Below, piece by piece: positions 57,004-60,000 of a stretch of DNA of 64,000 nt. The DNA is from Verrucomicrobiota bacterium (lineage in GTDB: Bacteria; Verrucomicrobiota; Verrucomicrobiia; Limisphaerales; UBA11358). Location of the stretch: positions 5,648-69,647 of the forward strand of contig JBEKKN010000010.1 of NCBI GenBank assembly GCA_050010675.1, read 5' to 3'. The notes below the pieces were generated by a model, which saw only the letters and a program-made list of their open reading frames with translations, searched no databases and was not told the origin of the DNA. Both the position numbers and the translations under genes were made by a program. How positions within the stretch are numbered: position 1 is the first letter of the stretch; the number at the start of each line of letters is the position of its first letter.

Positions 57004-60000
57004 ACTGTTCGAACGCACCGCTGACAGGAAGCACCCATCCATTTTTAAGTGAAAATGGTTTAGATTCTTTCAAAATAAAATTGTTATCAATTTTGTAGTG
57101 GCTTTGAAAGGATCCGGTGTCTGGATTTATTCCGCTTATAAAGTGTAACTCAAAAGGACGTCCTGATGAGACTATATCAAATTGAGCGGCACTCAGGTAT
57201 ATTGATCTAGTTTTATTAAGATCAACTTCGACGCTGCTTTTCACTTCAATGAAGGTCCCGGTTGCGGGAATTACTATATCGCAACGATTATTCGGCGGTT
57301 GAACTTCGATTATGATTCCTTGGTTCTTAAAATAATCTTCCACTACTTTTTCAGCAATATAACCAACTGGTTTCGTCACAAAATTGACAAACCTGCCAGG
57401 TTGAACGATGACACGCTGTATAGCTCGGTCTTCCAAATGAGGAAGCATTTCTTCTGAATTTGTAGCGATTTTCTCGATTTCCGCTTTGTCCGCATTTGCA
57501 GGAACAGCCTTTACCACTTTAGTTTTCCCTTCACGTTGAATCGAAATTTCAATCTCGCTTTCGACGAGCAAGGCGGGATCAAAACTAGGCCAGGGAGCGT
57601 AAGCCAATGCGGAATGCGGAGTGCGGAATGCGGAATGAAGTTTGTCCCACAATTCCTCTGCCAGATGCGGTGCGAAGGGCTGGAGCAAAACCAAAAAATT
57701 GCGTAACGCAATCACCGGTTTTGTTTCCCATGTCATCGCGTCATTTATGAAAACCATCATGGCGGAGATGGCCGTGTTGAAACGCATTCCATCGAGATCT
57801 TCGGTGACCTTTTTGATACAGGTGTGAAGCGTCTTCAACTGTGCAGGCAATGGTTGCGCATTCTTAATCGCAGCGCTGAGTCGGATCTTTTTGAGCAGCT
57901 CCGCGCCTTTTTGCGGCTCAGTCGTCTCCGCCTGCTCGAATTCCGTTTCGCTTTGTTCATCCACGAACAGGCGCCACACGCGACCGAGAAACCGATAAAC
58001 GCCTTCGACGCCCTTGGTACTCCACGGTTTGACCATTTCGAGCGGCCCCATGAACATCTCATAAAGCCGCAACGCATCCGCGCCGAAATCTTTCAGGACG
58101 TCATCGGGGTTTACTACGTTACCGCGCGATTTTGACATTTTCTGGCATCTCGCTTCGACTCTAATGGGAAAACCTGATTGGTTCTTTAACATGAAATACG
58201 GTCCGACCTTTTCCACACTATCACTGCTAACTTTTACGCCTACCAGAACTTCACCCGTGTTCCTGTCTTTGCCAACGAGTATGTGGCCTGACTCAACAAT
58301 GTCCACAACCTGTTGGGCTGTTACCCAAGCATCATCGGGAATTCCGATAGGTTGCTCTGAACGGAAAGCATAGTATTCCATCTCGCCGAGGATCAGTCCC
58401 TGATTGACGAGCTTGAAGAACGGTTCCGGGGTCGAGACATGGCCGAGATCGTAAAGCACCTTGTGCCAGAACCGGGCGTAGAGCAGATGCAGAACGGCGT
58501 GTTCGGTGCCCCCCACATATAAATCAACTCCTGGCGTTTGTAGCGGCGGTCTGTGACCGTCGCTGACATTTTCTGGAGTATGGCGGCGGTCACAGACCGC
58601 CGCTACAGAACCCATCCAATATTGCTCGGCTTCCTGGCTGACGAAGGCGGTGGAATTTTTGGAGTCGAGATAGCGGAGATAATACCAGCACGAACCGGCC
58701 CATTGCGGCATCGTGTTGGTTTCGCGCACGGAACCATCCGGCAGATTCACCCAATCCTTGGCGCGGGCGAGCGGTGGTTCACCGGTGGCGGTCGGCTTGT
58801 AATCGGTCAATTCCGGCGGCAACACCGGCAACGCGGATTCAGGCAGGGCCTCGTGATAGGACTGGCCGTCCTGGCCTTTTTTCCAGACAATTGGGAACGG
58901 CTCGCCCCAGTAACGCTGACGGCTGAACAGCCAGTCGCGCAACTTGAAGTTGACCGTTTTCTTGCCGAGGCCCTTGGCTTCCAGCCAGTCGGTGATTTTC
59001 TTTTTGGCTTCGGACGTCGGCAAGCCGGTGATGGAAATCTCCGGTCCGGTGGAGTTTACGGACGTGCCGTCTCCAACAAAGCCATGCCAATCCACTTTTG
59101 GATCGGGCGGTTGGACGACCTGAACGATGGGCAATTTGAATTTGGTGGCGAACTCGAAGTCGCGGGTGTCATGTGCCGGTACAGCCATGATGGCGCCGGT
59201 GCCGTAGCTGGCGAGAACGTAATCGGCGATCCAGATCGGGATTTTCTGGCCATTGACGGGATTGATGGCGTAAGCGCCGGTGAACACGCCGGTTTTTTCC
59301 TTGGCGAGTTCAGTGCGTTCGAGGTCGGATTTAACAGATGCCATCCATTGATATGCAACGATTGCGTCGTTTGGGTTCTTCGCGCTGCCGGTCCATTCTT
59401 TGAGCGTCCCTTCCGGCCAGTTGGTTGGAATTGCGCCCTTTCTCGTCATCTGATCAATCAGCGAGTGTTCCGGCGCGAGCACGATGTAAGTCGCTCCGAA
59501 CAAAGTGTCCGGGCGCGTGGTGAAGACGGTGATGGTGGGGACGGCGCGCTGCGCCGTCCGGTCGTCGCAGCGCGACGACCCTCCCACCTCAAAGCCCACT
59601 TCCGCTCCTTCGCTGCGGCCGATCCAGTTCCGCTGCATTTCCTTGAGTGAATCGCTCCAGTCAATCGTGTCGAGGTCACGCAACAGTTTTTCGGCATAAG
59701 CGGTGATGCGGAGCATCCATTGGCGCATCGGCTTGCGGACGACCGGAAAACCGCCCACTTCACTTTTGCCATCCACGACTTCTTCGTTGGCCAAGACGGT
59801 TCCGAGTTGTTCGCACCACCAAACGGGTGCTTCAGTAACGAAAGCGAGGCGTTTTGAGTCGCGATACGTGCGGCGTGCGGATTCGAGGTCTTGGTGGGGC
59901 GAGGCTGCTGACGAGCCGTCCCCGGAACCGGCTCGCGAGGACACTCGCCCCACCGGCTGTGATTCCAATTCCGCCGGATATTTCAGCGTCTCGATGGATT

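Follow-up and report, generated by a model that had tools for sequence, protein, structure and literature searches.

In-frame REP doublets and a heptamer array in the leucyl-tRNA synthetase gene of an uncultured Verrucomicrobiota bacterium, at loops that are recurrently filled in its relatives

We analysed a window of 64,000 nucleotides (positions 5,648 to 69,647 of contig JBEKKN010000010.1, assembly GCA_050010675.1) that contains leuS, the gene for leucyl-tRNA synthetase (LeuRS). The reading frame of leuS holds three doublets of repetitive extragenic palindromes (REPs), here called REPINs (REP doublets forming hairpins; E1, E2 and E3), and a tandem heptamer array (E4). The genome under study (G000, with the window on its contig C10 and its other contigs labelled in the same way) is a 94%-complete draft of 3.10 Mb in 148 contigs with 58% GC; related genomes carry G numbers, further loci L numbers and metagenome or RNA sequencing runs X numbers. 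The closest LeuRS sequences among public genomes came from metagenome-assembled genomes (MAGs) of Verrucomicrobiota, Verrucomicrobia subdivision 3, Limisphaerales, and the host is an uncultured Verrucomicrobiota bacterium, subdivision 3 or Limisphaerales-like, of soil or peat.

Three Pfam domains were assigned to the leuS product, the editing domain (tRNA-synt_1_2, residues 306-523), the catalytic domain (tRNA-synt_1) and the anticodon-binding domain (Anticodon_1, residues 904-1025), and the T. thermophilus and E. coli LeuRS structures in the PDB matched it down to E 3e-171. With both the HVGH and KMSKS motifs (the HIGH/KMSKS pair), a CP1 editing domain and an anticodon-binding domain, the protein is a LeuRS of the bacterial type; the names ZN1, editing, leucine-specific and C-terminal domain are used for what we take to be the parts so named in the T. 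thermophilus and E. coli structures. The original prediction of three palindromic doublets and a heptamer array that all preserve the frame was borne out, as the elements stand at the positions proposed and the frame stays open across E1, E2, E3 and E4 (Table 1).

The units of E1 to E3 combine a GTAG-type tag with an imperfect-palindrome hairpin, as REPs do. Those of E1 start with GTAG followed by a 9-bp stem, and those of E2 and E3 begin GGTGGG, with the genomic copies of the E3 type beginning GGTAGGG. The RNA of E1, E2 and E3 folded with energies of -48.6, -41.5 and -41.2 kcal/mol (z-scores -9.6, -4.3 and -4.6, respectively), and none of 200 shuffles folded as stably as any of the three; the RNA of E4 was unstructured. 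The net length change at E3 was +33 nt compared to the 48-nt form of relatives. Close intergenic relatives of two of the doublets, also part of the original prediction, were found at the places proposed, a 50-nt form of the E2 type between two called genes and several units of the E3 type in another intergenic stretch.

Table 1. Coordinates of leuS, its repeat elements and the other loci named in the text (window positions unless a contig or locus is given)
Feature	Position	Strand	Structure	Product or context
leuS coding sequence	56993..60547	minus	single long open reading frame, stop codon included	1184 aa; hosts E1-E4
E1 (F1 REPIN)	58539..58607	minus	two inverted GTAG + hairpin units, 19-nt spacer	residues 648-670, 23-residue peptide directly N-terminal of a conserved 12-residue block
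Inverted repeat I1 (E1)	58532-58563 / 58583-58614		32-nt arms, 88% complementary	
E2 (F2 REPIN)	59893..59954	minus	GGTGGGG-tagged doublet, unit types F2a + F2b	~residues 199-219, 21 residues inside a lineage-specific segment, between T. thermophilus residues 145 and 146
Inverted repeat I2 (E2)	59893-59918 / 59929-59954		26-nt arms, 81% complementary	
E3 (F3 REPIN)	59534..59588	minus	two adjoining 9-bp-stem hairpins framed by GGTGGG...CCCACC	~residues 321-338, 17-residue peptide in the beta-hairpin loop at the start of the editing domain
Inverted repeat I3 (E3)	59533-59559 / 59560-59586		27-nt arms, 78% complementary	
E4 (heptamer array)	57606..57637	minus	(AATGCGG) x 4.5 on the plus strand, one mismatch; CATTCCG on the coding strand	~residues 971-981, 11 residues in the linker from anticodon-binding to C-terminal domain
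77-aa segment	58151..58381	minus	GC 46%	residues 723-799; in 0/26 aligned relatives
3' part of leuS, including	57371-58150	minus	lower GC, 45-52%	
C-terminal extension	56996..57370	minus	GC 38%	residues 1060-1184, 125 aa; fused to LeuRS in G000 only
Intergenic F2 doublet (E2 relative)	53086..53135		50-nt form; F2b+ 0 mismatches, F2a- 1 mismatch	between called genes 51875-53059 and 53270-54739
Intergenic F3 single unit (E3 relative)	42826-42851			F3 units 42716-42959 all between called genes 40496-42490 and 43038-44585
Intergenic F3 doublet (E3 relative)	42908-42959			as above
Further F3 unit	42716-42741			as above
F5 unit	41861-41886			in frame in the 665-aa gene 40496-42490 (minus)
(CAACCCT)n array	47888-47921			classed intragenic, in another called gene
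hypF	G000:C8:105853-108402		one F2b unit, three heptamer arrays	
valS	G000:C104:12358-15186		two F5 doublets	
RAYT gene with F1 units	G000:C4:76683-77150		exact inverted F1 units on both sides, identical to E1-type units	
priA	G000:C2:65572-67698 (L057:1173-3299)	plus	whole REP-RAYT-REP unit in frame	
alaS with RAYT (G009)	L148:3-3353			
alaS with RAYT (G020)	L149:3-2828			
alaS with RAYT (G005)	L150:404-2521			
LeuRS with PBECR3 insert (G021)	L031:2440-3057			E1 loop
LeuRS with PBECR3 insert (G012)	L032:2203-2811			E1 loop
LeuRS with PBECR3 insert (G015)	L039:2463-3056			E1 loop
LeuRS with MshEN match (G015)	L039:3747-4271			editing domain
LeuRS with IF3_N match (G018)	L040:3262-3576			editing domain

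All four leuS elements belong to repeat families with further copies in G000; for the palindromes, such copies were called for by the original prediction. Five unit patterns were searched in the genome with up to 3-4 mismatches and the reversed genome as control, in which no match of any of the five was found. The search returned 21-68 units per family, namely 21 of F1 (the type of E1), 60 of F2a and 48 of F2b (108 together; E2 is an F2a/F2b doublet), 68 of F3 (the type of E3) and 67 of F5, which is not present in leuS. The units formed 169 clusters, 71 of which consisted of two units; all 70 same-family two-unit clusters listed were arranged head-to-head (+ then -) and the remaining pair combined an F3 with an F2a unit. 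F3 doublets were invariably 52 nt long and their stems covaried between copies. No shared flank motif or target duplication was detected around 17 F3, 24 F5 and 27 F2 doublets. Intergenic F2 doublets (e.g., window 53071-53150) share longer common flanks on both sides which the intragenic copies do not have, a pattern that looks as if genes may tolerate only the core of a longer element.

The genome also encodes REP-associated tyrosine transposases (RAYTs, also TnpA-REP). Among six Y1_Tnp matches, three proteins passed the NCBIfam model REP_Tyr_transpos (NF047646) with scores of 95.5 (C4), 90.1 (C46) and 86.4 bits (C101) against a cut-off of 80, and two were of the IS200 type. The RAYT gene on C4 is enclosed by exact inverted F1 units identical to those of the E1 type, and an F5 doublet abuts the RAYT gene on C101. 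F1 units were also present in 14 of 31 related genomes, with 0 control matches.

Insertion into genes was found to be a genome-wide habit of these repeats. Gene calls were made with our own simple caller (2605 genes, 87% coding DNA) and an element was classed as intragenic when it lay inside a gene and at least 45 nt from either end. On this basis the REP clusters do not keep to extragenic positions, with 65 of the 169 intragenic, 85 intergenic and 19 at gene edges; together with 63 intragenic heptamer elements (n = 132) this gave 128 intragenic elements in 105 genes. The intragenic share of the REP clusters (38%) is low compared to the share of coding DNA, a depletion that purifying selection would produce. 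A strict test, in which the host frame had to be the best of six on both 50-codon flanks, was passed by 42/65 REP clusters and 41/63 heptamer elements (83 elements in 75 genes). The elements were read in several frames and in both orientations.

The ten largest hosts besides LeuRS all belong to known Pfam families (a DnaE2/ImuB-like polymerase, UvrA, GlnE, valyl-tRNA synthetase (ValRS) with two doublets, an M16 peptidase, HypF, a GH94 glycoside hydrolase, a P-type ATPase, an acetyl-CoA synthetase and a beta-propeller protein), and in nine of them the element lies within or between the matched stretches. In GlnE, with the element at residue 219, the only Pfam stretches among those listed are downstream of it. 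HypF combines one F2b unit with three heptamer arrays, both doublets of ValRS are of the F5 family, and UvrA (C62) carries an F2 doublet along with two heptamer arrays inverted relative to each other, one of which has the leuS heptamer AATGCGG. Within the window, an F5 unit lies in frame in the 665-aa gene and a (CAACCCT)n array in another called gene (Table 1).

We compared G000 LeuRS with 26 aligned orthologues from related genomes (883-1235 aa). The E1 peptide was found in none of them, the E3 peptide in G006 alone and the E2 peptide in G029 alone. In T. thermophilus LeuRS, residues are missing at E2 (145 to 146) and E1 (530 to 532), and only a short turn stands at E3. The REPIN peptides are missing from most relatives and from T. 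thermophilus, or replaced by other repeats, as the original prediction expected.

The four loops were then measured from anchor to anchor in 96 distinct LeuRS genes, 50 ingroup and 46 outgroup, the ingroup being defined by a 22-residue motif independent of the counted feature, and a site was counted as occupied when a heptamer run of 22 nt or longer, or a stem of 9 bp or more, was present in it. One or more of the four sites were occupied in 34/50 ingroup genes and in 0/46 outgroup genes, and all four were occupied in 4 ingroup genes. Occupation by site was 12/46 at E2, 13/48 at E3, 25/50 at E1 and 18/46 at E4 in the ingroup, compared to 0/32, 0/18, 0/39 and 0/29, respectively, in the outgroup. 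Loop lengths were near-constant in the outgroup (E1 loop median 25 aa, against 25-220 aa in the ingroup), and over the whole coding sequence there were 51 heptamer runs in the 50 ingroup genes compared to 2 in the 46 outgroup genes.

The occupants of these sites turn over between close relatives. The closest relative, L068 (81-82% amino-acid identity), has only the E2 REPIN in common with G000; at E3 and E1, the sites of the F3 and F1 REPINs in G000, it carries heptamer arrays, and its heptamer at E4 is a different one. The F1 REPIN at site E1 is also present in L075, with a half-deleted copy in L077, and the F3 REPIN at site E3 is also present in G006 and missing from the nearest relatives of that genome, G008 and G010. 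Automatic family tags at E1 in a tree of 61 sequences (F1 in L091, F2 in G020) were left out of the counts. In single-gene LeuRS FastTree trees, including that of 61 sequences, carriers of one and the same element are not sisters; with short internal branches in the crown clade and support values not considered, shared ancestry followed by loss is possible. Many gains, losses or replacements are needed under any topology. Sliding DNA identity of G000 with G006, L075, G029 and L068 reached at most 86-90% around the shared elements, short of near-identity, and these windows neither favour nor rule out old recombination.

In three related genomes (G021, G012 and G015) the E1 loop holds an insert of ~170 residues matching PBECR3 (E 1e-20 to 1e-19), a nuclease domain of the barnase/EndoU/colicin E5-D/RelE-like kind, which sits exactly where G000 has the F1 REPIN; its carriers are scattered across the LeuRS tree, and no literature linking PBECR domains with LeuRS was found in our searches. 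Loops of ~213 aa stand at the same site in L091 and L095. In the editing domain, the variable segment after G000 residue 371 matches MshEN in G015 (E 2e-15) and IF3_N in G018 (E 1.6e-14).

An AlphaFold model of G000 LeuRS built from a 93-sequence alignment had a mean pLDDT (predicted local distance difference test) of 83.8 and a pTM (predicted template modelling score) of 0.81; an earlier model from 27 close sequences (mean pLDDT 54) was unusable and was replaced. E1 to E3 were local pLDDT minima in coil, each bordered by a block at 91-96 to one side and a block at 78-83 to the other. Block means were 53-70 for E2 (flanks 78 and 94), 62-78 for E3 and 52-58 for E1 (flanks 83 and 91), and the E3 coil (323-337) ran between strands 311-322 and 338-343. 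Low-confidence coil between confidently modelled elements is in line with the loop positions that had been proposed for E1 to E3. The E4 linker was modelled at a pLDDT of 92.

The leuS stretch was recovered from peat, soil and wetland metagenomes of 15 studies. Runs X2 and X3 belong to two other studies; their DNA contigs span E1, E2 and E3 with 0 differences, and contigs of the same runs cover a 77-aa segment and a C-terminal junction (both described below) with 0-1 differences. Other metagenome contigs have 36 other letters in place of 59534-59602 and come from related organisms without the F3 REPIN; contigs with other letters at E3 or E1, being those of related organisms, cannot be taken as established empty sites. 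In other runs the assembled contigs are interrupted at E4. RNA runs X17 and X18 gave short contigs covering E2, the edges of E4, the 77-aa segment and the 3' end; that of X17 covers E2 with 0 differences, and the lack of a contig over E1 or E3 among those listed is uninformative either way.

The heptamer array differs from the REPINs in that it adds no length. The E4 linker has 19 aa between anchors, equal to that of relatives without the array, and the original prediction of the array as an inserted peptide was not borne out; E4 is a replacement or an array formed in situ rather than an added insert. The AATGCGG heptamer is also arrayed on other G000 contigs. Tandem arrays of at least 3.5 copies numbered 143 for a period of 7, compared to 27, 36 and 4 for periods of 5, 6 and 8 and none for 9-11, and the period-7 arrays were 25-41 nt long, mostly 25-33 nt. 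With a 7-nt tandem unit, about four copies and period 7 over-represented, these arrays resemble known heptamer simple-sequence repeats, and a bias towards non-coding DNA is not seen (69 arrays intragenic, 42 intergenic, 32 at gene edges). At E3, 4/10 arrays keep the native 17 aa. Heptamers at the same site in different genomes differ by 1-2 bases, with the change present in all four copies, and at least one array-free relative, G010, has a matching heptamer at the position of the array's edge. The length-neutral arrays look like the product of concerted change or overwriting rather than insertion; yet identical heptamers also form arrays at other loci of the same genome.

Further unusual segments occur in leuS. 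The 77-aa segment stands at the position that the leucine-specific domain takes in LeuRS of E. coli and T. thermophilus. Segments 40-48% identical to it occur in LeuRS of L067, L069 and L088; it was modelled as a beta-rich domain (block-mean pLDDT 73-94) and is covered by contigs of X2 and X3 and by an RNA-library contig of X18. The LeuRS of relatives ends at about residue 1059, and in G000 a C-terminal extension follows, the junction of which is bridged by X2 and X3 contigs. Neither segment had a Pfam or NCBIfam match; the nearest ESM Atlas clusters of the extension were NOV_C (PF13020, score 0.96), a lead only. Over residues ~960-1059 the DNA is only 44-61% identical to G006, L075, G029 and L068, which together with the lower GC of the 3' part (Table 1) suggests that this part has another origin.

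Whole RAYT genes were also found in frame in other genes. In priA of G000 the Y1_Tnp domain occupies residues 259-345 and separates the 3'-DNA-binding domain from the DEAD helicase domain, with GTAG REPs on both sides. Of 20 relatives searched, 19 had a matching priA; in all 19 only residues 1-~215 and ~425-709 matched, and the insert was found in none. A RAYT 44-50% identical to that in priA lies in frame in the alanyl-tRNA synthetase (AlaRS; alaS) of three relatives. In G009 and G020 Pfam places Y1_Tnp within tRNA-synt_2c proteins, and in G005 the same REP-coded peptide occurs on both sides of the unit. A fourth match, in G011, lies within an open frame of 1477 aa.

To assess clustering, elements were placed at random with genes weighted by length. 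The probability that some gene would hold at least three REP clusters, as LeuRS does, was 0.018, and that some gene would hold at least four elements of any kind, as was also observed, was 0.005. The original prediction suggested that repeated hits on LeuRS loops reflected targeting or a hypervariable locus rather than chance. Clustering beyond length-weighted chance stood up, and site occupation was confined to the ingroup. A mechanism specific to LeuRS did not stand up, as in-frame repeats occur in 105 host genes (75 by the strict test) and LeuRS is tied for first place rather than unique because HypF also holds four elements; no target motif was seen in the flanks. We conclude that REP families have entered tolerant LeuRS loops beyond chance, within a habit that is genome-wide and clade-wide.

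The account we favour, and consider probable, is that REPINs and arrays survive where they keep the frame in tolerant loops, and selection for such loops is the simplest explanation. REPIN families would be kept and moved, at least some of them, by single-copy RAYT tyrosine transposases. REPINs and heptamer arrays would land in, or arise in, coding DNA, where protein-breaking copies would be lost and those that keep the frame, bring no stop codon and fall in a tolerant loop would survive. The surviving copies would be translated as Gly/Ser/Arg/Ala/Pro-rich peptides of ~11-23 residues. In this clade LeuRS would offer four tolerant places (before ZN1, in the first beta-hairpin of the editing domain, immediately ahead of the VDxYxGGxEHA strand, and in the linker to the C-terminal domain) and would therefore have collected one element in each, its length and its number of tolerant loops making it stand out. 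Selection for a few insert-tolerant loops would explain the data without targeting, and the inserts are most likely near-neutral passengers.

Several observations weigh against this account. The strict flank test was failed by 45/128 elements, and the gene calls came from a simple caller. Genes with at least two elements numbered 17 compared to 4.3 expected, and those with at least three numbered 4 compared to 0.14 expected; neither count was reached in 20,000 random trials, and this over-dispersion can be explained by differences in tolerance between genes but also by targeting. The cognate RAYT genes looked for on the basis of the original prediction were found in part, with F1 units around the RAYT on C4 and no RAYT beside F2 or F3 units among the six Y1_Tnp loci of the 94%-complete draft. 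Four REPIN families occur at site E2: F2 (G000, G029 and L068), a second in G006, a third in G012 and L077 and a fourth in G003. The same family also recurs at the same codon position in non-sisters (F3 in G000 and G006; F1 in G000, L075 and L077; F2 in G000, G029 and L068). At E4, 10/12 simple arrays keep the modal loop length of 19 aa, and simple insertion followed by selection does not predict arrays that preserve length. RAYT-driven insertion, neutrality and translation into protein are what we infer; RNA coverage of E2 is a weak hint that this insert stays in the transcript, and only a weak one because DNA carry-over is possible.

Of the alternatives, we regard site-directed colonisation and replacement as a real but distinctly less likely explanation. 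RAYT/IS200-type enzymes act on single-stranded hairpins, and a resident hairpin or repeat would attract further REPINs or arrays, with occupants displacing each other at given codons, making the LeuRS loops true hot spots and not just tolerant places. Ingroup-only occupation of the same four sites, the arrays of L068 at the sites of the G000 F3 and F1 REPINs with the E2 REPIN alone in common, the four families at E2, the recurrence of a family at one site in non-sister lineages, the over-dispersion among genes and the whole REP-RAYT-REP units that stand in frame in G000 priA and in the alaS genes of three relatives are all consistent with it. A targeting signal was not apparent in a common flank motif or target duplication around the 68 doublets of three families, the short crown-clade branches with support values not considered leave room for shared ancestry and loss, and the DNA-identity windows gave no sign of recent segment transfer. 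All four sites are also freely variable in length, as simple tolerance predicts.

Doubtful to a slightly greater degree is a broader form of this idea, in which REPINs, arrays and whole REP-RAYT-REP units of the crown clade home to a few codon positions in LeuRS, AlaRS, PriA, UvrA, ValRS and HypF, one replacing another, with arrays overwriting codons at constant length. If true, site-directed insertion and replacement would act on hairpins or single-stranded DNA inside genes, and a templated process would write about four heptamer copies; to our knowledge neither site-directed loop replacement nor templated heptamer writing has been described for RAYT/REP systems.

It is improbable that the inserts are kept because they are useful, whether as mRNA hairpins at domain borders that slow the ribosome or control mRNA decay or as flexible peptides that tune LeuRS. 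Hairpins of -41 to -49 kcal/mol within a coding region, at the edges of domains or between them, and the covariation of F3 stems, which implies that the structure is maintained, would fit such a role, but recognition by a transposase explains the covariation equally well, the occupant differs between close relatives, some of which have an empty site, the heptamer arrays at the same sites are unstructured and the same families occur in about a hundred unrelated genes and in intergenic DNA. An assembly or binning artefact joining repeats wrongly into the leuS of a MAG, which the draft state in 148 contigs and the contig breaks at the heptamer array might suggest, is very hard to reconcile with the X2 and X3 contigs that bridge E1, E3, E2, the 77-aa segment and the C-terminal junction with 0-1 differences, the orthologous REPINs at the same sites in other genomes and the frame that is open throughout.

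In some lineages, repeats known as 'extragenic' can reshape essential proteins on a large scale. Gene annotation is affected because repeat-bearing genes look too long or chimeric, and there is a bearing on the reading of variable alignment loops and on REPIN-RAYT biology. The four LeuRS positions tolerate inserts of 11 to >170 residues, and the loops of this clade provide a natural series in which sites are filled, filled differently or empty, and which could reveal whether targets are chosen by REPINs and by what route heptamer arrays come about.

The behaviour of these elements resembles that of the Rickettsia palindromic elements (RPEs), reportedly described by Ogata et al. in 2000. RPE-1 is longer and AT-rich, and we know of no RAYT associated with it. 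RPEs are given as palindromic repeats in frame in genes in the background section of a study of GTAG REPs (PMC3733652). As in Rickettsia, palindromes lie in frame in functional and often essential proteins and add surface peptides. In contrast, the elements described here are GC-rich GTAG/GTGG doublets of 52-69 nt in a genome with RAYT genes, and both the organism and the repeat family are different; the resemblance is one of behaviour only.

REPIN-RAYT systems are said to have been described in Pseudomonas and Enterobacteria by Nunvar (2010), Bertels and Rainey (2011) and Ton-Hoang (2012). Our elements share with them the inverted doublets of tagged hairpins, a single-copy RAYT flanked by its own REPs (F1) and a family common to related genomes. 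The REPINs of those bacteria are described as extragenic in the parts of the sources consulted (PMC8049555, PMC5581495, PMC8266576), whereas 38% of the clusters here lie inside called genes. According to Quentin et al. (2018; PMC6006769), REPs occur in frame inside tnpA-REP genes of subclass 2.4; there too the insertion leaves the host frame intact, but the gene hit is that of the transposase. RAYT proteins of unexpected length were set aside in that study as fusions or misannotations, so RAYTs in frame in priA or alaS would have been dropped from it.

Searches of the literature on heptanucleotide repeats in Verrucomicrobia, on RPEs in aminoacyl-tRNA synthetases and on RAYTs or REPINs within genes, tRNA synthetases among them, returned nothing relevant. 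Cyanobacterial short tandemly repeated repetitive (STRR) sequences are one further kind of heptamer repeat. The GGGAATC-type heptamers of Xanthomonas and Nostoc are described, in the part of the source consulted, as G-quadruplex formers with a non-coding bias (PMC4692102, the one relevant source that our searches gave on STRR sequences or heptamers in coding DNA). They are like the arrays of G000 in the over-representation of period 7, the preference for about four units and the occurrence of tandemly inverted pairs; the arrays of G000 differ in that 63/132 are intragenic and in frame, many heptamers are used and loop length is often kept.

The closest published case is within the same phylum. 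Intragenic GTAG REPs were reported by Di Nocera, De Gregorio and Rocco (2013, BMC Genomics 14:522; PMC3733652, consulted in part) and were most numerous in Opitutus terrae, in which one REP family has mutated to GTGG. In-frame REPs in bacterial genes are thus already known from print, and the view that GTAG REPs are normally extragenic, which the original prediction took as its background, meets a published exception in Verrucomicrobiota as well as the intragenic clusters described here. According to the parts of that study consulted, intragenic REP dimers encode 20-30 residues inside known proteins, hosts include uvrA, DnaE2-type polymerases and tRNA synthetases, some ORFs (open reading frames) are hit twice, and the authors propose that the inserts lie in flexible linkers or loops. 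In the same parts, a shared insertion site is given only for recB of two Xanthomonas, and heptamer arrays are not treated. In the literature searched, supplementary host lists not being covered, no precedent was found for the reuse of the same loops across species with turnover of the occupant, for in-frame heptamer arrays that preserve loop length or for whole RAYT genes in frame inside essential genes. The REPs of O. terrae and those of G000 are alike in phylum, in the GTAG/GTGG tag, in the presence of several families per genome and in the uvrA, DnaE2 and tRNA synthetase hosts. They differ, as far as the consulted parts of the O. terrae study go, in that one gene here holds three REPIN families and a heptamer array, and in that the same loops are occupied in dozens of related genomes with their occupants turning over.

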